Part shown: positions 1-40,645 of the stretch, one piece after another
How positions within the stretch are numbered: the stretch's first letter is position 1
Layout: each line of letters opens with the position of its first letter
Assembly (NCBI GenBank): GCA_964016885.1
Contig: OZ024747.1
Location: forward strand, 82,708,001-82,772,000
Origin: Eledone cirrhosa
Taxonomy: Eukaryota
Direction of reading: 5' to 3'
DNA length: 64,000 bases
Translations under genes and position numbers: made by a program
The notes under the pieces: model-generated
The model's input: only the letters and a program-made list of their open reading frames with translations
The model's database searches: none
What the model was told of the DNA's origin: nothing

Positions 1-2377
1 TACTAACATTCTGTCTGACACTACTAGTCCTTCACCCCCACTACTACTAACATTCTGTCTGACACTACTAGTCCATCACCACCACTACTACTAACATTCT
101 GTCTGACACTACTAGTCCATACCTCCACTACTACTAACATTCTGTCTGACACTACTAGTCCTTCACCCCCACTACTACTAACATTCTGTCTGACACTACT
201 AGTCCATCACCACCACTACTACTAACATTCTGTCCGACACTACTAGTCCTTCACCCCCACTACTACTAACATTCTGTCTGATACTACTAGTCCATCACCC
301 CCACTACTACTAACATTCTGTCTGACACTACTAGTCCATCACCCCCACTACTACTAACATTCTGTCTGACACTACTAGTCCTTCCCCCCCACTACTACTA
401 ACATTCTGTCTGACACTACTAGTCCTTCCCCCCACTACTACTAACATTCTGTCTGACACTACTAGTCCTTCACCCCCACTACTACTAACATTCTGTCTGA
501 CACTACTAGTCCTTCACCACCACTACTACTAACATTCTGTCTGACACTACTAGTCCTTCACCCCCACTACTACTAACATTCTGTCTGACACTACTAGTCC
601 TTCACCTCCACTACTACTAACATTCTGTCTGACACTACTAGTCCTTCACCCCCACTACTACTAACATTCTGTCTGACACTACTAGTCCTTCACCCCCACT
701 ACTACTAACATTCTGTCTGACACTACTAGTCCTTCACCCCCACTACTACTAACATTCTGTCTGACACTACTAGTCCTTCACCACCACTACTACTAACATT
801 CTGTCTGACACTACTAGTCCTTCACCCCCACTACTATTAACATTCTGTCTGACACTACTAGTCCATCACCCCCACTACTACTAACATTCTGTCTGACACT
901 ACTAGTCCATCACCCCCACTACTACTAACATTCTGTCTGATACTACTAGTCCATCACCCCCACTACTACTAACATTCTGTCTGACACTACTAGTCCTTCC
1001 CCCCCACTACTACTAACATTCTGTCTGACACTACTAGTCCTTCACCCCCACTACTACTAACATCCTGTCTGACACTACTAGTCCATCACCCCCACTACTA
1101 CTAACATTCTGTCTGACACTACTAGTCCTTCACCCCCACTACTACTAACATCCTGTCTGACACTACTAGTCCATCACCCCCACTACTACTAACATTCTGT
1201 CTGACACTACTAGTCCTTCACCCCCACTACTACTAACATTCTGTCTGACACTACTAGTCCTTCACCTCCACTACTACTAACATTCTGTCTGACACTACTA
1301 GTCCATCACCCCCACTACTACTAACATTCTGTCTGACACTACTAGTCCTTCACCCCCACTACTACTAACATTCTGTCCGACACTACTAGTCCATCACCCC
1401 CACTACTACTAACATTCTGTCTGACACTACTAGTCCATCACCCCCACTACTACTAACATTCTGTCTGACACTACTAGTCCTTCACCCCCACTACTACTAA
1501 CATTCTGTCCGACACTACTAGTCCTTCACCCCCACTACTACTAACATTCTGTCTGACACTACTAGTCCTTCACCCCCACTACTACTAACATTCTGTCTGA
1601 CACTACTAGTCCTTCACCCCCACTACTACTAACATTCTGTCCGACACTACTAGTCCTTCACCCCCACTACTACTAACATTCTGTCTGACACTACTAGTCC
1701 TTCACCCCCACTACTACTAACATTCTGTCCGACACTACTAGTCCTTCACCCCCACTACTACTAACATTCTGTCTGACACTACTAGTCCTTCACCCCCACT
1801 ACTACTAACATTCTGTCCGACACTACTAGTCCTTCACCCCCACTACTACTAACATTCTGTCCGACACTACTAGTCCATCACCCCCACTACTACTAACATT
1901 CTGTCTGACACTACTAGTCCTTCACCTCCACTACTACTAACATTCTGTCTGACACTACTAGTCCATCACCTCCACTACTACTAACATTCTGTCTGACACT
2001 ACTAGTCCTTCACCTCCACTACTACTAACATTCTGTCTGACACTACTAGTCCATCACCTCCACTACTACTAACATTCTGTCTGACACTACTAGTCCATCA
2101 CCTCCACTACTACTAACATTCTGTCTGACACTACTAGTCCATCACCTCCACTACTACTAACATTCTGTCTGACACTACTAGTCCTTCACCTCCACTACTA
2201 CTAACATTCTGTCTGACACTACTAGTCCATCACCTCCACTACTACTAACATTCTGTCTGACACTACTAGTCCATCACCTCCACTACTACTAACATTCTGT
2301 CTGACACTACTAGTCCATCACCCCCACTACTACTAACATTCTGTCCGACACTACTAGTCCATCACCCCCACTACTAC
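1..2377. repeat. 44-bp minisatellite array (about 54 units, runs off the left edge)
   Basis: Unit TACTAACATTCTGTCTGACACTACTAGTCCWTCACCCCCACTAC repeated head-to-tail with few variants. Confidence 0.98.
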
Positions 2378-2507
2378 TTTATTTTATCTACCCCGTAAGG
2401 ATGAAAGGCAAAGTTAACCTCGGCGGGATTTGAACTCAGACCATAAAGGGCCGTAACTCTTTGCTACAAAGCATGGCGTCAGACCCTCTACGATACTGCC
2501 AGTCCAA
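2374..2507 (-). mobile_element. tRNA-derived SINE, family A (3' part missing)
   Basis: Core CCCCGTAAGGATGAAAGGCAAAGTTAACCTCGGCGGGATTTGAACTCAG shared with more than 10 copies. Pol III A/B boxes on the minus strand. Confidence 0.9.
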
Positions 2508-2582
2508 TGATAATAACAACGGCAGCTAATGGCGTAGCATGGACGAGATTTAAAACAACGAGCGCTTCATCTACACCACTGT

Positions 2583-4786
2583 ATGAGGATATAACCACAG
2601 GTAGATACAGGCTAGATATTATGAGGATATAACCACAGGAAGATATAACGTAGATATTATGAGGATATAACCACAGGTAGATACAGGCTAGATATTATGA
2701 GGATATAACCACAGGGAGATATAACCTAGATATTATGAGGATATAACCACAGGGAGATATAACCTAGATATTATGAGAATATAACAACAGGTAGATACAG
2801 GCTAGATATTATGAGGATATAACCACAGGAAGATATAACCTAGATATTATGAGGATATAACCACAGGCAGATATAACCTAGATATTATGAGGATATAACC
2901 ACAGGTAGATACAGGCTAGATATTATGAGGATATAACCACAGGAAGATATAACCTAGATATTATGAGGATATAACCACAGGTAGATACAGGCTAGATATT
3001 ATGAGGATATAACCACAGGGAGATACAGCCTAGATATTATGAGGATATAACCACAGGGAGATATAACCTAGATATTATGAGAATATAACAACAGGTAGAT
3101 ACAGGCTAGATATTATGAGGATATAACCACAGGAAGATATAACCTAGATATTATGAGGATATAACCACAGGCAGATATAACCTAGATATTATGAGGATAT
3201 AACCACAGGTAGATACAGGCTAGATATTATGAGGATATAACCACAGGAAGATATAACCTAGATATTATGAGGATATAACCACAGGCAGATATAACCTAGA
3301 TATTATGAGGATATAACCACAGGTAGATACAGCCTAGATATTATGAGGATATAACCACAGGGAGATATAACCTAGATATTATGAGGATATAACCACAGGC
3401 AGATATAACCTAGATATTATGAGGATATAACCACAGGTAGATACAGCCTAGATATTATGAGGATATAACCACAGGGAGATATAACCTAGATATTATGAGG
3501 ATATAACCACAGGCAGATATAACCTAGATATTATGAGGATATAACCACAGGGAGATACAGCCTAGATATTATAGGATATAACCACAGGGAGATATAACCT
3601 AGATATTATGAGGATATAACTTCAGGTAGATACAGCCTAGATATTATGAGGATATAACTACAGGAAGATATAACCTAGATATTATGAGGGTATAACCACA
3701 GGGAGATACAGTCTAGATATTATGAGGATATAACTACAGGGAGATACAGCCCAGATATTATGAGGATATAACCACAGGTAGATACAGGCTAGATATTATG
3801 AGGATATAACTACAGGGAGATACAGCCCAGATATTATGAGGATATAACCACAGGTAGATACAGGCTAGATATTATGAGGATATAACTACAGCGAGATACA
3901 GCCCTAGATATTATGAGGATATAACCACAGGTAGATACAGCCTAGATATTATGAGGATATAACCACAGGGAGATATAACCTAGATATTATGAGGATATAA
4001 CCACAGGGAGATACAGCCTAGATATTATAGGATATAACCACAGGTAGATACAGCCTAGATATTATGAGGATATAACCACAGGGAGATATAACCTAGATAT
4101 TATGAGGATATAATCACAGGGAGATATAACCTAGATATTATGAGGATATAATCACAGGGAGATATAACCTAGATATTATGAGGATATAACCACAGGGAGA
4201 TACAGCCAAGATATTATGAGGATATAACTACAGGAAGATATAACCTAGATATTATGAGGATATAACCACAGGTAGATACAGCCCAGATATTATGAGGATA
4301 TAACTACAGGGAGATACAGCCCAGATATTATGAGGATATAACCACAGGGAGATATAACCTAGATATTATGAGGATATAACCACAGGTAGATACAGCCCAG
4401 ATATTATGAGGATATAACTACAGCGAGATACAGCCCAGATATTATGAGGATATAACCACAGGGAGATATAACCTAGATATTATGATGATATAATCACAGG
4501 GAGATATAGCCTAGATATTATGAGGATATAACCACAGATAGATACAGCCTAGATATTATGAGGATATAACCACAGGAAGATATAACGTAGATATTATGAG
4601 GATATAACCACAGGGAGATATAACGTAGATATTATGAGGATATAACCACAGATAGATACAGCCTAGATATTATGAGGATATAACCACAGATAGATACAGC
4701 CTAGATATTATGAGGATATAACCACAGGGAGATATAACGTAGATATTATGAGGATATAACCACAGATAGATACAGCCTAGATATTA
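2583..4786. repeat. 38-bp minisatellite array (about 58 units)
   Basis: Unit ATGAGGATATAACCACAGGDAGATAYARSCTAGATATT, period 38 (2583 to 2621). Confidence 0.98.
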
Positions 4787-6215
4787 CAAAAAAAAATAAA
4801 CAAAAGGTCCCGGGATATGAGAAGATCCCAAACGCCATGGGAAAATATTTAACAATGATACCTTGAACTGCTAACAGATATGTTTAATAAGATGCTGACA
4901 GGGGCAGAGACAACAACTGGCTGTGTCTCTGAGGCGAAAATCATCTTAATCCATAATACTAAACGAACAGGTAACCTTAAAAATTACAGACATGTAATCT
5001 GCAAAGACAATTGCAATAATATCACAGAGAATAAATATGGCTGTAAAGAAAACCATATCCAAAACTAGTACAAAGAGCATAGTTTAAATTAATTCGTAGA
5101 TCCTGGAAATAATAAGCAGATACATAAAACACTTGTCAAGTAAATGGCAAATAATTCAGCAAATAAGATACAGAGGTAAGGGATATCCCAAAACCATCAT
5201 GTTCAAGAGGACTGGATTTAGATTTTAAAAATACTATAGTAGGGCATTCAATCATCTTTTGTATGTGAACAACTTCAATTTGTACCCTGAAGATGTTTTA
5301 CAAATGCAAGCATTGCAGCAGACAGCAATGAATTTACGAGAGAAATTAATACGAGATTCGGATTAGAAAAATGCTCCAAGGAGACGTTAGAGAGAGAATT
5401 AATTAAGAACGCTATCATTATGCTAGAAACAAAGATAATTATGTATTAAAGTAATAGAATTAATGCAAAAATATTCTAACTGTGCCAGTGATAAGTTATA
5501 CTATTATCAATTAGATGCTAAACAAATTAACACGACGGAAAGACGAGGAAAAATTATTCCATTTAGAATACACTACACACAATTTGACATTAAAATATAT
5601 TAACTATCAGTTGGGGATTTATGCAACTAGAAATCTATTATAAAATATCTACTAAAAAATAAGTGGAAACTAATACAAATAACTATAAACAGAACAAAAA
5701 TGTTTTTTGTCTTCAAAAAAGCTAACAAACATAAAATAGATTGAAATGACGATTGTGGGGTGAAAATAGACATAACAGAAACTGTGTAAAGTCTAAAAAA
5801 TAATATAGAAATGGGAGTACAGAATGTCACACTAAAGTAATGGCAACGAAAGACACTTTATGTCAAATATCTAGGAGGAGGTAACTGAGATTGGGAATAA
5901 ATAAAACATGAATCGCCACAATGACTGAGAGGCTCAGTACTCAAAGGTGATAGAGAAGGATTTTTTTTTATTGTAGTAGAGGTAACAAATTGGCAGAGTA
6001 GTTAGAACCTCGGATAGAGGACAATTTGAAGGGGAGAGGAAAGTTGATTAAATCAACCCCAGTGCGTGTGTCTGGTACTTTATTTTCTGAAGCCCGTAAG
6101 GATGAAAGGCAAAGCTAACCTCGGCGGGATTTGAACTCAGATGGTAGACGGAGACTAAAGAAAATCATATCGAAACGCTTGGATGATTTGAAGTCCAAAT
6201 GCAGAAAATGAATGT
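4747..6215 (+). pseudogene. Decayed R4/Dong-like non-LTR retrotransposon RT region
   Basis: Collinear degenerate motifs: KVPGYEKIPN (cf. KSPGxDxIPN), IILIHNTKRTGNLKNYRHVIC (cf. LIPK..NYRPITC), FNHLLYVNNFNLYP at 5247 (cf. INHLLYMDDLKLY), FGLEKCSK at 5357, LYVKYLGGG, LRGSVLKGDREGF at 5925, KCRK. Many stops and frameshifts. Confidence 0.75.
6023..6141 (-). mobile_element. SINE family A fragment inserted in the LINE remnant
   Basis: Family A core sequence. Confidence 0.8.
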
Positions 6216-6450
6216 AACAACAGTCGATCGCTATAAATAATAAATTTGGAAAACCAGGTAAAATACTACGAGAGGTGAAAAACAATGGCCAGGATCAGTG
6301 AATCAGAATACCGACCTCGTGCATTAGAAATAAGGTGAACAGATTGACAGCTAATTGCGATCAATTTAAGGGGCAGTAGTAAACAGCTTGCGGCTAGAGC
6401 CGGATGTATAGAAATCTTATTTTATTATCGAAGTACTTCGATGATTTGAA

Positions 6451-6486
<36 letters not shown>

Positions 6487-6490
<4 letters not shown>

Positions 6491-6673
6491 GTTTCTAAGT
6501 TAGGCACAAGGCCAGCAATTACCCAGTGCATTACTGGTACTTTATTTTATCGACCCCGTAAGGATGAAAGGCAAAGTCACCCTCGGCCGGATTTGAACTC
6601 AGATCGTAAAGAGACGTAACTATGCTGGAAAGCATGGCGTCCGACCCTCTACCGATACTGCCAATCCACCGCC
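6487..6673 (-). mobile_element. SINE family A, full length
   Basis: Family A core, A/B boxes on minus strand, tail next to (TA)n. Confidence 0.9.
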
Positions 6674-7164
6674 CTTTATTTATATATATATAATGTGTGT
6701 GTGTGTGTATTAAATCTGACTCTCTCTCTCTCTCTAATATAGTTACACATTACTATCGCAAGTATCGAGTACTCTGATGAATAATGATCTAAATACTTTA
6801 AAACAGGTAAAATCTTTTTATATATATATATACATACATATACATGTATATATATAAACATAAATACATATATATATATACATGCATACACACATACACA
6901 CATACATGCATACATACATTTAAATATATATCTATGTGTGTGTCTCTTCATTTGAATTAAGATATCTTCATTCAAATGAAAACATTAATCAGGATAAGAA
7001 CTTTAAAAAAACTACATTAGCATTTTTTAGAATTACGACTTCTAAGTGAGGAGTGGAACGGAAATTAAAGATTCCCGTCCACGCCATCTAGCGCAGATAT
7101 GTGTATATTACCTCTACATCCGGCATTACATGTGTAGTTATGCATGTCAGTGTCTATGTTTGTA

Positions 7165-7521
7165 TATAGATGTGTGGTGTTCTATTTGTGTGGGTGTGTG
7201 TACGTGTGTGTGTCTGTGTGTGTGTGTTCTATTTGTGTGTGTGTGTTCTATTTGTGTGTGTGTGTGTGTGTGTGTGTCTGTCTGTGTCTGTGTCTGTGTC
7301 TGTGTATATGTGTGTGTGAATGTGGGTGTGGGTGTGTGTATGTGTATGTCTGTGTGTGTGCGTCTGTGTTTCTGTGTGTATCTGTCTGTGTGTGTGTGTG
7401 TGTATCTCTATGTGTGCGTGTATCTGCCTGTGTGTGTGTATGTTTGTGTGTGCGTGTGTCTGTATGTGTGCGTGTGTGTGTGTGTACTATTTGTGTGTGT
7501 GTGTCTGTGTGTGTGTGTGTG
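7165..7521. repeat. Imperfect (TG)n microsatellite
   Basis: Directly visible; explains the CV-rich ORFs. Confidence 0.95.
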
Positions 7522-8035
7522 TAATACCCGAGATAACATAGCTGTAAATTTGCATCACCTTTTTTTTTTAAAATTAGTTATATAAATATTTATTTGCTTT
7601 CCAACAGAATTTTTTTTTTCAAATTTTCATAATAAATAAATAAACAAGTAAAATCTCTTATTTTCCACATGATCTGTCACCCACTTAACACTTAGCAGGA
7701 GAAGCTACTTCTGCAATTAGTTTCTTCGTGTTCTTCAGCTAATTCTTGCCGTAAACATTCAATGGTGATGGACATTGGTGAAAATGAAAAGAAAAAGATA
7801 GAGAAAGCAAGTAGAGAGAGAGGGGGGCCGTTAGAATAATGTGTGAACCAATAGAAATGCTTGGGGAGCTAAAATTGTTCACACCAAAAATGTCGGGTTA
7901 TGATTTACAAAGCTAGTGAAAGCAGGAGATATGAACTACGTGTTGTACAGATGGTATCATCTGGCCAATCACATAGAGGTTCGATTCCATACACTTGTTT
8001 CTCAAATGGCTTTTTTCTTTTTTCGTTGTAATTGA

Positions 8036-8068
<33 letters not shown>

Positions 8069-8109
8069 ATATTAAGGATACTATTTATAACATAGCTTTG
8101 ATTCTTGTG

Positions 8110-8174
<65 letters not shown>

Positions 8175-8277
8175 TATTGAAATTTCCGTTGGAAAACAGA
8201 AAAGGTCATAGAAGTGAAGAGTGCTCTATGTAAGTATCAGAGCAAAATTTAATGTATAAAATCAATACAATATAATT

Positions 8278-8349
8278 ACCTCATTACCAGAGGTTTCCCG
8301 AATGAGGCGAATACGAAATAAACGTCTTCATTCGTTCGTCAGACGAGGC
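8278..8349 (-). ncRNA. Type I hammerhead ribozyme motif
   Basis: Minus strand: GCCTCGT-CTGACGA-ACGAATGA...TCATTCGG-GAAA-CCtctGG-TA-ATGAGGT. Stems I, II and III pair. Lies in a short insert between (TA)n runs. Confidence 0.75.
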
Positions 8350-8550
8350 AATATAAAACATGGGTAAATACTTAGAAAAAACTCATCAAGAAAATCAAAA
8401 AAGGGCCAAAAAATCAAAAAAAGGGAAATAAGAAAAATCAAAAAATATATATATATATATATATATAATTGAGAAACGATTGTAATATGTCTAATAAATG
8501 TTAATTCGTCGCACCACTGATTCTCCGTTTCTTATGCGATATATATATAT

Positions 8551-8612
8551 ACAACAAAGATGGTGTGGTACGATACCAAGTGGACCATAACGCACCAGAG
8601 TACTCAATACTC
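8551..8612 (-). mobile_element. 3' tail of the (TA)n-embedded element family (same as 27078, 34690, 37611, 44738, 58631)
   Basis: GTGGACCATAACGCACCAGAGTACTCAATAC shared among copies. Confidence 0.7.
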
Positions 8613-9085
8613 TTTTCCTATATATCCAGGGAGTGTAACGAGGAGTTACTGTAGGTTCACCCGGATGAGTACTCGATGTTTAGGTTCACGTCAGTATGGA
8701 GGTGTAGAGCTAGACAGCGTGTAATATAGTAATACAAGGACGAGTGGCTACTCCTTCATTACGTTTATTGGTTAGTGACGTGCGTTTCGTTAGAGATCAC
8801 CTCAAGGTTCTATCTGTATCGATCAGGCCCGACTCTGTATGTATGTTTCCTATAAATATATATATATATATGTTCCTAAGAATAGTTTTTTTTTTCAAAA
8901 CTATTAATAAATTCGTACAAATCTATCTTCACATATAATTTACCATAACTACCGAATGTTTAAATTGAAAGGTAGTTTTCACCTGTCTGTACTTCAGGAA
9001 TAACAATACAATGTGTTTATTTTGGGCTCTTCTTCTACCATTGTACATATAAACATTTATACACCTAACTCACACATCCACCACG

Positions 9086-9141
<56 letters not shown>

Positions 9142-9920
9142 AATATAATTATATATATATATATATATATATACAAATATAATTTTATATATATATATAT
9201 ACTGTATCTTTTAAATAATTTTCGAAATAATAAAGAATTTGGAGCAAGTTAGAAATATAACTAACTTTCTCATTTTTAAGCTGGTGTTTCAAGCATAACT
9301 TAAAGGTTCTGACATTAAAATATAACGGAAGGTTTATAGATAACTATAAATCCCTTTAAGATAAAGAACTTAATATCGTGGCTTCAGGTGGTTAGTTGCC
9401 GTAAATTTTCGCTTGTCTCCCCCTACCAAGATGTTGAGATAAAGTAGTGAAAGATATTTATTGTAAGTATTAATTTTTCTTGGTGTACAGCTCATGTACA
9501 TAGTGATAAAGGATTGACGATCCGACATTAAATTCTTGTGTATTAATACAGCGGTGGGTGTGAATAAATAAACAGGAATATATATCCATATATATTTAAT
9601 CTCGGTGTGAAAATAATCCTATAGAGGGTGGGGCTTCTGGTGTTTAATAACTGCTGCCATGCAGCTGCCACTAGTAAACACAGTTGTATCTTGATATAAG
9701 TTTGCTCCTGATACACAAAATAGTTACGTTTAATATATGTGCAAACATATGTATATGTGTGCACATATATACACACCCACATACATGCATACACACACAC
9801 ACACACACACACATGTATGGATTGGTCTGTGTAAACGAGAGAACCAAAATAACACTGTAGAGTGATACATATTTCATTCTAACTGTAAAGTTCAAGCTAC
9901 AAATGATATAATGTTGATAA

Positions 9921-10104
9921 TAATTGTTTCTACTTTAGGCACAAGGCCAGCAATTACCCAGTGCATTACTGGTACTTTATTTTATCGACCCCGTAAGGAT
10001 GAAAGGCAAAGTTAACCTCAGCGGGATTTGAAATCAGAACGTAAAGGGCATAACTCTATGCTTCGAAGCATGGCGCCCCACACCCTACCGATACTGCCAA
10101 TCCA
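9921..10104 (-). mobile_element. SINE family A
   Basis: Family A core and tail. Confidence 0.9.
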
Positions 10105-12824: not shown

Positions 12825-12958
<134 letters not shown>

Positions 12959-13085
12959 AAAGTTTTATTTAAATTGTTGTGATACAACAAGTAAATATTT
13001 TTATAACTGATATAAAGCACTCGACAAGTATTTGGAGTAAAAATACGATATTAACAAATGGAAACTATATTTATAAAACCATATT

Positions 13086-13150
13086 TATTTCATTATACAT
13101 ATTTCAAGGATACCAAGTTAAATTGTGGTATGCCTTCATCAGACAAAATA
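13086..13150 (-). ncRNA. Type I hammerhead ribozyme motif (mirror copy)
   Basis: Reverse complement of 13304-13368. Confidence 0.8.
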
Positions 13151-13303
13151 CAATATATACCAGTTTTATAAATAAACATTGACGTACCCTTTCAAAATGC
13201 GACCGTTACTTTTGGAAGACATCATATCCTGATGTCTTCCAAAAGTAACGGTCGCATTTTGAAAGGGTACGTCAATGTTTATTTATAAAACTGGTATATA
13301 TTG

Positions 13304-13368
13304 TATTTTGTCTGATGAAGGCATACCACAATTTAACTTGGTATCCTTGAAATATGTATAATGAAATA
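13304..13368 (+). ncRNA. Type I hammerhead ribozyme motif
   Basis: TATTTTGT-CTGATGA-AGGCATACCA(loop)TGGTATCCTT-GAAA-TATGTA-TA-ATGAAATA. Predicted cut after 13360. Confidence 0.8.
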
Positions 13369-13407
13369 AATATGGTTTTATAAATATAGTTTCCATTTGT
13401 TAATATC

Positions 13408-13471
<64 letters not shown>

Positions 13472-13631
13472 TCTCATGTTTTTTATATATATTTACCTCG
13501 GCTGCGTTTGTCTGTTTCTCTCTTACTGCTTCCCCGTTCTCTCTGTTTCTCTCACCTTCTTTCGCCCCCTCTGTCAGTTACACTTTCTCTCGACTGACCG
13601 CTTCCTCGCACTTCCACTCACTCACTCTCTT

Positions 13632-13970
13632 TTTCTCCCCTTCTCACTTCCTCCCGTTTGGCTTACAGTGGGTCTCTTCTTGCTTACATCTCACTCAGGT
13701 CGGACGTCTGTACCTTTCGCTCATGAAATCCACCCAGTTTATGCTGACCAGGACTACCATGTTGCTTGTTTTTTTCCTTTCTTTGGTTTGCTTTTATCCT
13801 TCTATGTTGTTCACTTGTCTCCCTCGCTTTGCGCGATTTACTGGTCCCAATAACCTTTTTTTTAGTTATTGCTCGCACCAACCTGAGGTATATGATTTTT
13901 AATGCGATGAAATACCAATGATGGTTGGAAAATCACTGACGAAGGACTATTTTTATCATATGTAACCCAT
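13632..13970 (+). mobile_element. ~340-bp dispersed repeat, second copy at 47122-47463
   Basis: Near-identical sequence at both sites, both near (TA)n. Contains CTGACGAAGG but no downstream GAAA. Confidence 0.8.
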
Positions 13971-14394
13971 ATATATGGTTGTCCACCGCCACCATTCACA
14001 GACATTCTACAATATAAACAACTGCAATAGTTTTTCTAGTTACAGAATGATACATATAGATACAAACATCTATCCATCTATGCATGCACACACACATATA
14101 TATACATAGATACATACACATATACACATATTCACACACATACATACAAACACAGATACATACATACACACATACACCTACATACATACATACACATATA
14201 TACTACTAAATGTGATTCTAGCACTAACACAGGTGTGCTTTTTTTTGTATTCTTATATATATATTTATATGTAGGAGGTGAGTTTTATTGTAGTACAATA
14301 AAGCAATGCAGATATCGGATAAGTAGCACTCTACAGTTTGTAGGACTGGAGTATAAATAATATAAGATCAAAAGATGGTTAAAAGAGTTCCATG

Positions 14395-14465
14395 TATTTT
14401 ATTATGCGCATTTCAAAAACAAATATCATCATGAGATGACATTTGCGTTTTCGTCAGATAAAATA
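14395..14465 (-). ncRNA. Type I hammerhead ribozyme motif (mirror copy)
   Basis: Reverse complement of 14589-14659. Confidence 0.85.
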
Positions 14466-14588
14466 GGGATACATGATATGAAGGTTAAAAAACACTTGTG
14501 AATAGTGGAGTTTTAAATCAACACATCATATGTTGATTTAAAACTCCACTATTCACAAGTGTTTTTTAACCTTCATATCATGTATCCC

Positions 14589-14659
14589 TATTTTATCTGA
14601 CGAAAACGCAAATGTCATCTCATGATGATATTTGTTTTTGAAATGCGCATAATAAAATA
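14589..14659 (+). ncRNA. Type I hammerhead ribozyme motif
   Basis: TATTTTAT-CTGACGA-16-bp stem II-GAAA-TGCGCA-TA-ATAAAATA. Palindromic stem III ATGCGCAT. Predicted cut after 14651. Confidence 0.85.
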
Positions 14660-14791
14660 CATGGAACTCTTTTAACCATCTTTTGATCTTATATTATTTA
14701 TATAGTAATAATAATAAATTTGAAGACTAAAATCCAAAGAGGGCTCGATAAGGATAAATATATATCAAATATATAAGAACCGTAGAGCAAG

Positions 14792-14914
14792 TATTTATTA
14801 AAATAACAGATTAAAGTTTAAGCAAAGAATCGCTGCATTCACTCTTAACGGGATCTTCTGAAGATCCCGTTAAGAGTGAAAGCAGCGAAACTTTACTCTG
14901 TTATTTTAATAAAT
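14792..14914. repeat. Imperfect hairpin centred at about 14859 on a CTGAAGA motif
   Basis: TTCACTCTTAACGGGATCTTC-T-GAAGATCCCGTTAAGAGTGAA; degenerate HHR-like right arm. Confidence 0.8.
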
Positions 14915-14917
14915 ATA

Positions 14918-14976
<59 letters not shown>

Positions 14977-15959
14977 TTGTGTGTGTCTGTATGTGTATGT
15001 GTGTGTGTGTATGTGTTCATATTTTCTTAATGCTTGTTTATTTCATATTTCTGTTCTTGTTTTTACTATATTCTTACAGTATTCTGTTTATTATACATTA
15101 TAACATTCGCTCATATAATTATACGAGCTGAAAAATTACTAAAAATATGTGACAAATCAGTAACGAAAGATATGAAAATAATAAGATAAAATAATGAACA
15201 AATAACTCCCTTTGTTCCATCTTATCCCCAAAAACAAAAATAAGGAACAACAACAAAAATACAGAGAAGCAAAATTGCAACGTATGCTCATAAAAAATCG
15301 AACAGTTTTTGGTACATTTTGACGAGAATGACCTGTTTACAAATGTGTCTGTTGTTTACGATGATCACCAATTTAAACACTATAATGATTCGCACTGTGA
15401 TTACATCCGAATATAGAAGTGGCAAATGTAAGGCATGAAAAAGAAAGACATAAAGCTGTAATAAATAAACACACATTACAGGTTTGTATGGCTGCAATCG
15501 TATCTGTAAATAAACAGGTGTATTCACGTGAGTTATGTGTGTTATATTTGTATGTTTCCGCTGTCAAACAAATCGAGAAAACGAGTGATAGGAATACACA
15601 CACATACACACGCGTGTGTGTGTGTGTAATGTTGGATATGAATCGAAGTTGTAGCAGGTAGTAATCATAAAGCAGGAGGCAATCATAAAGCACTCAATGG
15701 TTGGAGAATCTAAACATTATGGCCCGGAGTAAAACACAACATATATATATAAGGATATGTTCGTTCTACATGGCTGAATACAATAAATGTAATCGGAGTT
15801 TTTCGAATATTAATAATAACATTCGATTCGTTTGCAATTATGCAAACAAGCCTCAATTTTATAGCCATGTCAGTAGAATGAACCCTTCATTCTGGCTCTT
15901 GGGTTGGCATGTGAACAGAACTGCAGACTCTAATGTTTCTCGGTATCACCCTCATGAAG

Positions 15960-32875: not shown

Positions 32876-32928
32876 GTACATATATATACCAGGTGCACTT
32901 ACCGAACCCTTTTTTATTATCATTTTCC

Positions 32929-32987
<59 letters not shown>

Positions 32988-32998
<11 letters not shown>

Positions 32999-33850
32999 TA
33001 CATGAATCAAAGTTCTGTTCAAACCATTTATTCGCTTACAATTGTTTCTTCCAAACCGAGGTTTGGAGTCTTCGGAGCAATTTTTCAATGATTGTTTACA
33101 TACATGACCTCCTTTCCAACACAAGAGACATGCAGAAACATATGTTTATATAGATGCACAGTGGGTTGACATCCATTATAATATTTTAGCATGGCAATTT
33201 ACATTCAAAGATTAAAGTCATATTAAAAGAAAACAAAATTAAAGTTAAAAATCAACATTGGCAGTTTACGAAGATAATGCAAGAGGATAGTTAGAAGTAG
33301 TTAGTGTATGCAATAGTTACACGAGGGGCATGCACGTGTGTCTTGTTTATATAAGATTATAGTGCGGCAAGGTGTTATATGTAATACAAGCACTTTAAGC
33401 GGGCAATCAAGAGTATTATGGGGGTTGTATTGGTAAAGTATTTTTTATGTATGATATAGAACCTTGTGTGCAGAGAAATATTAAAAATATTAAACTGAGA
33501 AGCAAAACAATGTTATGGTTTTCGTATATACCACTAACTACTTCTAACTATCCTCTTGCATTATCTTCGTAAACTGCCAATGTTGTATTTTAACTTTAAT
33601 TTTGTTTTCTTTTAATATGACTTTAATCTTTGAATGTAAATTGCCATGCTAAAATATTATAATGGATGTCAACCCACTGTGCATCTATATAAACATATGT
33701 TTCTGTATGTCTCTTGTGTTGGAAAGGAGGTCATGTATGTAAACAATCATTGAAAAATTGCTCCGAAGACTCCAAACCTCGGTTTAGAAGAAACAATTGT
33801 AAGCGAATAAATGGTTTGAACAGAACTTTGATTCATGTAATTTCTATATA
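32988..33850. repeat. Inverted repeat with 319-bp arms (32988-33306, 33532-33850) and 225-bp spacer; each arm carries an HHR variant
   Basis: Positions pair with sum 66838; left arm abuts (TA)n. Confidence 0.95.
33758..33806 (+). ncRNA. Hammerhead motif with U4C core variant (mirror copy 33032-33080 on minus)
   Basis: TTGCT-CCGAAGA-CTCCAAACCtcGGTTTRGAA-GAAA-CAATTG-TA-AGCGA. Confidence 0.6.
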
Positions 33851-40218: not shown

Positions 40219-40303
<85 letters not shown>

Positions 40304-40345
40304 CTTCAAAATATTAATAAATATAGACATTCATGTGATCAAATA

Positions 40346-40411
40346 TATTTTATTATACATATTTCAGAGATACTGAGCTATTTCAACAGTACGTCTTCAT
40401 CAGATAAAATA
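40346..40411 (-). ncRNA. Type I hammerhead ribozyme motif
   Basis: Minus strand: TATTTTAT-CTGATGA-AGACGTACTG(loop)CAGTATCTCT-GAAA-TATGTA-TA-ATAAAATA. Confidence 0.85.
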
Positions 40412-40593
40412 AGTTGATGCTTGACATACCTTGACTACGTTGATGGTTATAATGTAGTCATGGCAGTGATTAGTTATGACAAAACTCTATATTTATATAT
40501 AAGTATTAATAACTCCTGAAAACCTTACTGTAGAGTGCTTATAATCTATTGTGAAACTTTATTCATTGATGAATTCATTGAACCTTGTTAAAC

Positions 40594-40645
<52 letters not shown>

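Follow-up and report, generated by a model that had tools for sequence, protein, structure and literature searches.

Two ribozyme-bearing palindromes in the Eledone cirrhosa genome as probable paired insertions of a Penelope-like retrotransposon end

The question raised by this locus is what two near-perfect palindromes, each with an outward-pointing type I hammerhead ribozyme (HHR) motif on both strands, are and how they came about. They lie in a 64,000-nucleotide stretch of the Eledone cirrhosa genome (contig OZ024747.1; C7:82708001-82772000 of the 3.0-Gb assembly), which is AT-rich and dense in microsatellites; the whole stretch is here called the window, and positions are counted from its first base. 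We find it highly probable that each palindrome is a head-to-head pair of 5'-truncated, HHR-bearing 3' ends of a divergent Penelope-like element (PLE), a retrotransposon, that sits in a (TA)n run and was likely built in one insertion event. The palindromes are ordinary, if very clean, PLE insertion architecture and not free-standing ribozyme palindromes or a new ribozyme system.

A preliminary description of the locus spoke of two perfect ~350-bp palindromes with divergent ribozymes. An inverted-repeat search recovered both, with arms of 187 nt in palindrome 1 (13038-13224/13230-13416; 99% identity, 5 nt between) and of 175 nt in palindrome 2 (99% identity, 1 nt between; Table 1). Palindrome 1 has two mismatches at its outer edge (13040/13414 and 13042/13412), and palindrome 2 has one beside its centre (14524/14530), so that its perfect part is 172 nt per arm (14352-14523/14531-14702) around CATCATA. 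Near-perfect palindromes with divergent HHRs are thus present, but the units as a whole are not symmetric: a tail of ~85-95 nt is found only on the left copy of palindromes 1 and 2 and not on the right copy. In unit 1, the left copy continues through ..CGTATTTTTACTCCAAATAC...CTTTTGC, as at three other loci in the genome (L012, L105, and L106); the right copy instead gives way to (TA)n. The outer edge of the unit 2 tail was placed by (TA)n loose ends of contigs at 14254 and 14269 and by a high contig depth from 14248. A third unit in the window is also arranged head to head (40486-40501 is an inverted repeat of 40312-40327). The tails of the three units align together (ACTCC...GAGTGCT...ACTTTT), and all three units lie within or adjoin (TA)n.

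Table 1. Positions of the arms, tails, and hammerhead motifs of the three units in the window
Feature	Position	Strand	Remarks
Tail of left copy, unit 1	12957..13042	-	3' extension without counterpart on right copy; (TA)n outward
Left arm, palindrome 1	13043..13224	-	5'-truncated element copy, 3' end leftward; perfect 182-nt complement of 13230-13411
HHR, unit 1 left copy	13082..13154	-	81.7 bits, E 3.7e-18 (sequence in the model's seed set); predicted cleavage between 13094/13093
Centre TATCC, palindrome 1	13225..13229		joint of two 5' ends
Right arm, palindrome 1	13230..13411	+	tail-less copy running into (TA)n at 13404-13470
HHR, unit 1 right copy	13300..13372	+	stem I TATTTTGT/ATGAAATA, stem II 10 pairs with C-C mismatch, stem III ATATGTAT; predicted cleavage after A13360
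Tail of left copy, unit 2	14255..14351	-	outer edge approximate; homologous to tails of units 1 and 3
Left arm, palindrome 2	14352..14526	-	inverted-repeat search
HHR, unit 2 left copy	14391..14469	-	65.7 bits; predicted cleavage between 14403/14402
Right arm, palindrome 2	14528..14702	+	tail-less; base 14528 is a recurrent 5' end joined to inverted copies elsewhere
HHR, unit 2 right copy	14585..14663	+	CUGACGA core, stem II 16 pairs with C-U mismatch, stem III AUGCGCAU; predicted cleavage after A14651
Unit 3 tail-less copy with third HHR	40303..40485	-	inner edge approximate
HHR, unit 3	40342..40415	-	85.8 bits; predicted cleavage between 40354/40353
Unit 3 inverted member	40486..40602	+	~25-nt stub of 3' end plus tail, then (TA)n

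The arms recur throughout the genome. Copy counts given here are first-look candidates per query (509 to 3,720), and q denotes a position in the query. Arm 1 had 1,313 candidates, of which the 40 scored gave 51 matches, mostly 96 to 100% identical; arm 2 had 509 candidates; and unit 3 had 3,720, with a subfamily over q104-300 at 96 to 97%. Arm sequence occurs in three layouts: as a single copy between (TA)n runs, as a copy that extends 160 to 400 nt or more upstream, and as a head-to-head inverted pair with the 3' ends outward. Besides the window's own pairs, inverted pairs were found at 6 of 17 top-scoring loci of family 1 and 9 of 18 of family 2. The tail was present on exactly one member in 13 of these 15 pairs (6/6 in family 1), and q177-273 of the arm-plus-tail query, which is the unit 2 tail, recurred at 11 of the 18 family 2 loci. 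Second members were either full length or started at q6, q112, q123, or q197 in family 1 and at q10, q37, or q135 in family 2, in each case running to the 3' end; second arms truncated on the outer side numbered only three (two with q1-32 and one with q1-42). The element has two alternative 3' ends, a short one (..ATCGTATAT in family 1, ..TTATTTATA in family 2) and a long one that adds the ~85-95-nt tail starting ACTCC. At the centre of palindrome 1, where the window has TATCC, other loci have ATAT or ATAGTAT. Five simple insertions start at q1-q3.

Contigs from short-read runs X1-X3, which are separate from the assembly contigs but possibly derive from the assembly sample, carry the same kind of joint. 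Among the joints listed, 14 of 15 lead from varied left-arm positions to 14527-14530, with a further 96 joints beyond the listed ones, and (TA)n loose ends are present outside 14254/14269 on one side and 14704 on the other. A step in contig depth at ~14427/14626 was not used, as it may reflect truncated copies or subfamily conservation. Contigs from run X5, which is labelled as another organism, also contain family sequence at 95 to 100% identity. The perfect arms had been taken to imply a recent origin or arm-to-arm conversion. A recent origin fits the 95 to 100% identity of the scored copies, while conversion is not needed: many loci have partial second arms joined to one fixed 5' end, which shows that the mirror copy is made per insertion.

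These observations also bear on whether the palindromes could be artefacts of assembly at this locus, produced by chimeric or fold-back reads. No listed record among the short contigs spans either whole palindrome, and PLE tandem and inverted structures are described as troubling assemblies in the cited part of Craig et al. (2021, PMC8557442). Nevertheless, the same layout, with different centres and truncation points, is present at many loci on many contigs, the contigs from runs X1-X3 hold inverted joints to 14528 (with the caveat on their sample given above), and family sequence is found in the contigs of run X5. We therefore regard an artefact as extremely improbable.

Longer relatives connect the arms to a coding element. 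The genome was scanned with the HHR pattern CTGAYGA-N18-44-GAAATNNNNATA, which makes no demand on pairing in stem I or II. A hand count of the first 100 matches gave, within 1 kb, 16 (-,+) pairs, 0 (+,-) pairs, and 4 same-strand pairs; a further 9 (-,+) pairs of one motif family were 1 to 5.1 kb apart. Seven of those nine were fetched, and all seven were inverted repeats, six of them enclosing an open reading frame (ORF) of 204 to 821 aa. The arm-plus-tail queries of units 1 and 2 align to the ends of these 3- to 5-kb elements at 85 to 93%, and the tail is one-sided in six of the seven long pairs, as it is in the short ones. The HHR of the long copies follows the ORF stop at a distance of ~1 kb. 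Where short copies extend 5' of the arm, the added stretch corresponds to the 3' untranslated region (UTR) of the long copies, and 6 of 17 family 1 loci extend into it at the same ~99% identity. The short copies thus form a 5'-truncation series of the long element. The HHRs are passengers of its 3' UTR.

The assignment of the coding element to the PLEs rests on profile-profile and BLASTP comparison. The ORFs linked to arm 2 and arm 1 HHRs (821 aa and 566 aa) are 55% identical to each other, and the HHR-linked ORFs are asparagine-rich. When the 821-aa ORF was compared with an ORF of the same genome in which Pfam confirms both RVT_1 and GIY-YIG, the reverse transcriptase (RT) motifs aligned at an E value of 2e-4 and the GIY-YIG region at 0.033. 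A profile of 16 members of the ORF family aligned by hhalign to a profile of six canonical PLE ORFs over 580 columns (probability, 98.4%; E value, 7e-15), an alignment that takes in the YxDD and GIY-YIG regions. The RT domain precedes a C-terminal GIY-YIG, the same order as in canonical endonuclease-positive PLEs. Among solved structures, a profile search returned only a retron RT (E value, 0.011), too weak for use. A database search with an HHR-linked ORF found 25 relatives; PF26215 and PF28514 are listed for ORF homologues, and no name was assigned from them. The sole named relative (P0008, from Argonauta hians) is called "GATA zinc finger domain-containing protein 14-like," which is probably a mislabel arising from the asparagine-rich composition of a PLE ORF.

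In a second reading, the short copies would be a self-standing nonautonomous lineage (retrozyme-like or similar to short interspersed nuclear elements) that is transcribed, cut by the HHR, perhaps circularised, and recopied by PLE enzymes, the palindrome being its landing form. Such a lineage would account for a 5' end shared at one base (five insertions at q1-q3 and joints at the fixed position 14528) and for short copies that are ~99% alike while only 86 to 93% identical to the sampled long copies; moreover, animal non-LTR (non-long terminal repeat) retrozymes have been proposed as PLE derivatives in the cited parts of 10.64898/2026.07.22.740005 and of Cervera and de la Pena (2020, PMC7229834). 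Against it, the 6 of 17 family 1 loci that continue into the long-element 3' UTR at ~99% mark a truncation series and not a unit of fixed length, and TAT/ATAT precedes the fixed 5' ends, in keeping with microhomology to the (TA)n target. The window has no head-to-tail arrays. Further, none of the examined loci and contigs had a copy boundary at a predicted cleavage site (q134 in family 1, q125 in family 2), and so ribozyme cleavage does not seem to shape the inserted copies. On balance, we consider a nonautonomous lineage very unlikely.

A third possibility is an origin at the DNA level, either as a foldback transposon or miniature inverted-repeat transposable element (MITE) or by a single-copy insertion followed by hairpin repair or gene conversion that copied its one arm. 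Perfect arms and tiny centres are what such a process would leave, other small palindromic repeats that lack an HHR also sit in (TA)n in this genome, and one inverted pair with a flipped stem II loop (L108, described below) hints at DNA-level hairpin processing. However, the arms are 3' ends of elements coding for RT and endonuclease (RT-EN), the second arms have lost 5' sequence but retain their 3' end, and copies with a single arm or a 5' extension are common. The one-sided tail seen in 13 of 15 pairs would not be expected from a symmetric DNA mechanism. Each of these features is a mark of retrotransposition. An origin of this kind is in our view even less likely than a nonautonomous lineage.

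A head-to-head pair of truncated PLE ends accounts for the combination of 5' truncation, an inverted neighbouring copy, a one-sided tail, and an AT-rich target, which together make up the published PLE insertion signature. Biochemical work suggests how such a pair might be made. A purified PLE protein was shown to cut AT-rich DNA on both strands and to extend both, and it began reverse transcription at two internal sites; the distance between these sites equals the tail (Frangieh et al. 2024, PMC11167929). By analogy, the endonuclease of the element studied here would cut both strands of AT-rich DNA within (TA)n, and each 3'-OH would prime synthesis of complementary DNA (cDNA) on element RNA. 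Two internal start sites ~85-95 nt apart, one proximal and one distal, would yield one copy with the tail and one without. The cDNAs may end at variable points or at a preferred stop after TAT/ATAT (..CTAT|CCTG in unit 1, ..ATAT|GTTG in unit 2), and their ends would be joined via short self-complementary TA-rich ends, easing a head-to-head join. Where both cDNAs reached the same point, the result would be a perfect palindrome with a centre of 1 to 7 nt. The window offers a clean natural series of second arms, which range from full through partial to tail-only and share a fixed 5' junction, and this series fits the both-strand cutting and two internal starts seen for PLEs in vitro.

Two other routes were considered and rejected. 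HHR-cleaved RNA as the template was set aside because no copy boundary falls at a predicted cleavage site. If snap-back self-priming at the 5' end of the RNA were the main route, truncation would be expected on the outer side, for which there are three cases versus many second arms truncated at the 5' side.

It is important to note that several points weigh against the reading of the palindromes as paired PLE ends. The steps of both-strand priming, two start sites, and microhomology joining we infer by analogy with the published system. The examined arm 1 and arm 2 loci were the best scoring ones and not a random sample. Pfam found nothing meaningful at E values up to 1 in the HHR-linked ORFs and four database homologues, and the 16 loci around Pfam-detectable GIY-YIG ORFs (L057-L072) had no HHR of the studied type beside the ORFs. 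The sampled long copies are 86 to 93% identical to the arms, and the source element of the short copies, which are ~99% alike, was not among them. The (TA)n flanks are seen directly, and a target-site duplication is unreadable inside (TA)n. Relative to the published elements, the tail is longer (~85-95 nt versus 30 to 40 bp), the HHR lies ~1 kb downstream of the ORF stop rather than at the ORF start as in an Anolis element, and the three window units show no direct repeat of the arms or partial tandem of the pseudo-long terminal repeat (pLTR).

In the same genome, PF01541 (GIY-YIG) has at least 10,596 candidates, with 150 of 150 scored lying above the cut-off. One canonical PLE with RVT_1 and GIY-YIG (L072) is itself a palindrome, whose 1,732-nt arms are 99% identical and enclose a centre of 26 nt. 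Its repeat extends over ~1149-6318 of that locus (~5 kb) with (TA)n outside and a one-sided tail of ~75 nt, and a direct partial (tandem) copy lies 4 kb downstream at 7769-9954. No HHR of the studied type is found within this large palindrome. Beside it, at 6400-6730, is a small palindrome with divergent HHRs of the "TATCACCGG" family, with stem III ATGATCAT and stem I ATAC/GTAT.

We then ask what the ribozymes themselves are. The HHR motifs were located with a script scan and a purpose-built covariance model. Each consists of an 8-nt stem I strand, CUGAYGA, the stem II hairpin, GAA, an 8-nt palindrome (AUAUGUAU or AUGCGCAU), A, and the stem I partner. Core numbering and the cleavage position follow standard hammerhead numbering, in which the core comprises C3-U4-G5-A6-N7-G8-A9, G12-A13-A14, the A15.1-U16.1 pair, and H17 (not G) at the cleavage site. 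This catalytic core is complete in all five window motifs. The stem sequences first reported for the motifs are correct (stem I, TATTTTGT/ATGAAATA and TATTTTAT/ATAAAATA; stem III, ATATGTAT and ATGCGCAT), as are the stem II lengths (10, 16, and 10 pairs) and the mismatch at position 4, which is C-C or C-T. The curated Rfam hammerhead models gave no match on the window at the gathering score, and none at E values up to 10 on 12900-15000 or on a 91-nt motif alone. The only Rfam matches were look-alikes of microRNA hairpins, which we dismissed as chance matches caused by palindromes and microsatellites.

The preliminary description had also argued from three different stem II sequences that the RNA structure is under selection. 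In the whole genome, the HHR pattern had 46,700 + 46,314 matches (93,014), compared with 166 + 164 (330) for a reversed control. Since the pattern asks for no stem pairing, the 23 distinct motifs from 30 loci fetched by it alone are a set unfiltered for pairing. In this set, 91.3% of stem II positions were paired (position 4 omitted), versus 63.2% when the 3' halves were dealt among the motifs (standard deviation, 4.2; maximum, 74.4 among 200 shuffles). A second set of 20 distinct variants, which is biased towards pairing because it was drawn from the 70 of 97 motif strings with at least 6 of the first 8 stem II pairs, had changes on both sides at 14 of 22 pairs; 90.7% of its cells paired, versus 76.7% after shuffling (reached by 0 of 500 shuffles) and 31 to 54% with a slid partner. 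A covariance model built from this alignment found 130 matches, 77 of them distinct, in 89 loci. In the resulting alignment, which is fitted to the model, 94.1% of cells paired versus 79.5% when shuffled, and both sides changed at 14 of 19 pairs. The core was CTGA(T/C/A/G)GA in 77/77, with GAA in 76/77 and A at position 17 in 76/77, and stem III was ATATGTAT, ATGCGCAT, ATATATAT, or ATGATCAT in 65/77. All three sets exceed their shuffles, and the view of one structural HHR family with real covariation is borne out: the HHR structure is under selection at the family level.

The same sets speak to the C-pyrimidine mismatch at the fourth stem II pair, which had been noted as conserved in the window. 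Position 4 was unpaired in 20 of 20 variants, in 23 of 23 motifs (C-C 15, C-T 8), and in all 77 model matches (C-C 51, C-U 23, U-C 2, C-A 1), where it never formed a standard pair, while 8 of 9 stem II pairs neighbouring the mismatch covary. Conservation of the mismatch therefore holds. Its suggested role in a tertiary contact between stems I and II gained no support. One could go further and see in it a lineage-specific functional element of the HHR, either a place where the RT-EN protein docks or a tertiary contact in place of the usual loop-loop interaction, in a Pfam-invisible PLE clade with ~93,000 motifs, with the perfect stumps acting as hairpin-RNA genes that feed small-RNA silencing of the clade; we hold this extension to be rather doubtful. 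The never-paired C-pyrimidine position could readily be probed by assays of cleavage or protein binding.

With a stem III of 2 bp closed by a palindromic loop, these HHRs would cleave, if at all, as dimers or with the help of protein. The computed dimer of the arm 2 motif lies 13.3 kcal/mol below two monomers, with an 8-bp intermolecular stem III, and the gain is 3.8 kcal/mol for the arm 1 motif and 6.7 kcal/mol for the unit 3 motif. A transcript through a whole palindrome folds, by computation, into a hairpin that is 96 to 98% paired (-296 and -277 kcal/mol), and in such a read-through transcript the ribozymes would be buried in the perfect hairpin. That hairpin transcripts of this kind feed small-RNA pathways is speculation.

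Several further repeats were seen in the window and at the examined loci. In the window, an inverted repeat with 319-nt arms (32988-33306/33532-33850; 99% identity, 225 nt between) adjoins (TA)n at 32920-33005. It has weak HHR-model matches (E values, 0.18 to 0.3) at 33025-33087(-) and 33751-33813(+) with no canonical CUGANGA core and may be a different or decayed element of the same head-to-head layout. To the right of palindrome 2, positions 14705-14760 are a very high-copy repeat (summed contig depth, 1 to 2 million) that also adjoins an arm 1 copy at L015. An imperfect ~115-bp palindrome without an HHR core follows at 14786-14900, directly before (TA)n, and the same sequence stands beside an arm 1 copy at L002. 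A GC-richer palindromic repeat (..GACCCCGACGGC..GCCGTCGGGGTC..), MITE-like and without an HHR, lies in (TA)n beside arm 1 copies at L014 (~1290-1400) and L018 (~1710-1770). Positions 1501-1924 of L032 hold a complex nest of four family 2 pieces on alternating strands (q2-176 minus, q135-232 plus, q135-221 minus, and q2-59 plus), suggestive of repeated template switching or of an insertion into a unit already in place. At L108, the members of one inverted pair (547-620(-)/3146-3219(+); G000:C1:4408058 and 4410657) differ by a flipped stem II loop (TTTTT versus AAAAA in an otherwise palindromic hairpin), and it looks as if an inversion took place at the DNA or cDNA level.

Taken as paired PLE ends, these striking palindromes are explained as a normal footprint of Penelope-like retrotransposition, and comparable palindromes of other genomes that carry ribozymes on both strands do not have to be regarded as new systems. 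The genome also holds a PLE clade that escapes Pfam, with tails two to three times longer than described, and the curated Rfam models miss the tested motifs in a genome with ~93,000 pattern matches.

How, then, do the units compare with known systems? PLE insertions are described as strongly 5' truncated, often with an adjacent inverted 5'-truncated copy, and as carrying a tail of 30 to 40 bp, usually at one end, with a (TA)n bias in some clades (Craig et al. 2021, PMC8557442). Head-to-head is the most frequent PLE arrangement, with the tail on one inverted pLTR, and junction palindromes, microhomology-mediated 5' junctions, and asparagine-rich inserts in the ORF are reported as well (Arkhipova et al. 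2013, PMC3846280). The units studied here share the head-to-head copies with outward 3' ends, the variable 5' truncation, the tail on one member, and the AT-rich or (TA)n target, and likewise the short palindromic or microhomology junctions, the asparagine-rich ORFs, and an HHR in the noncoding end; in canonical PLEs, HHRs sit in the pLTR (PMC8557442). The window units differ in being stumps of 175 to 275 nt without an ORF, and the linked ORF clade differs from known PLEs in escaping the Pfam RVT_1 and GIY-YIG models. A literature search for PLE hammerheads in cephalopods returned nothing relevant.

The ribozymes resemble the minimal type I HHRs of PLEs, of which thousands per genome are described, with a long helix II and a short palindromic helix III, and which are thought to act as dimers; opposite-strand pairs 100 to 700 bp apart are attributed to truncated PLEs (Cervera and de la Pena 2014, PMC4209133). 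A dimer-only HHR variant set is known from Lunse et al. (2016), as cited in PMC6765202. Shared features are the type I topology, the long helix II, a helix III of 1 to 2 bp with a palindromic loop implying dimers, the many sequence families per genome with compensatory changes, and the presence of both solo motifs and opposite-strand pairs. In contrast to the conserved G10.1-C11.1 of the minimal PLE HHRs, the first stem II pair here is A-U or G-U, with no extra base between positions 9 and 10.1; among the 23 motifs, it is AT in 13, GT in 4, TT in 5, and AC in 1, and no bulged register yields G-C. Stem I has 8 bp here versus 4 to 5 bp there, and the ~93,000 pattern matches compare with the 2,000 to 9,000 HHRs quoted for single genomes in PMC4209133. 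The cited portions of the HHR papers carry no mention of a C-pyrimidine mismatch at stem II pair 4, although no dedicated literature search for it was made. In one biochemically studied PLE, HHR mutants had no effect on in vitro insertion, and HHR cleavage needed protein (PMC11167929).

Two other kinds of element invite comparison. Animal non-LTR retrozymes (Cervera and de la Pena 2020, PMC7229834; Li et al. 2026 preprint) share with the window units that they are short noncoding repeats with a type I HHR, thought to depend on PLE enzymes. They are, however, head-to-tail tandem repeats yielding circular RNAs, whereas the window units are inverted pairs within the 5'-truncation series of a coding element. 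Foldback elements and MITEs have symmetric terminal inverted repeats with a target-site duplication and bear no mark of reverse transcription, whereas the window units have a one-sided tail, 5'-truncated second arms, and homology to the 3' end of an RT-EN element. All the structural features of the window units are matched in published descriptions of PLEs.

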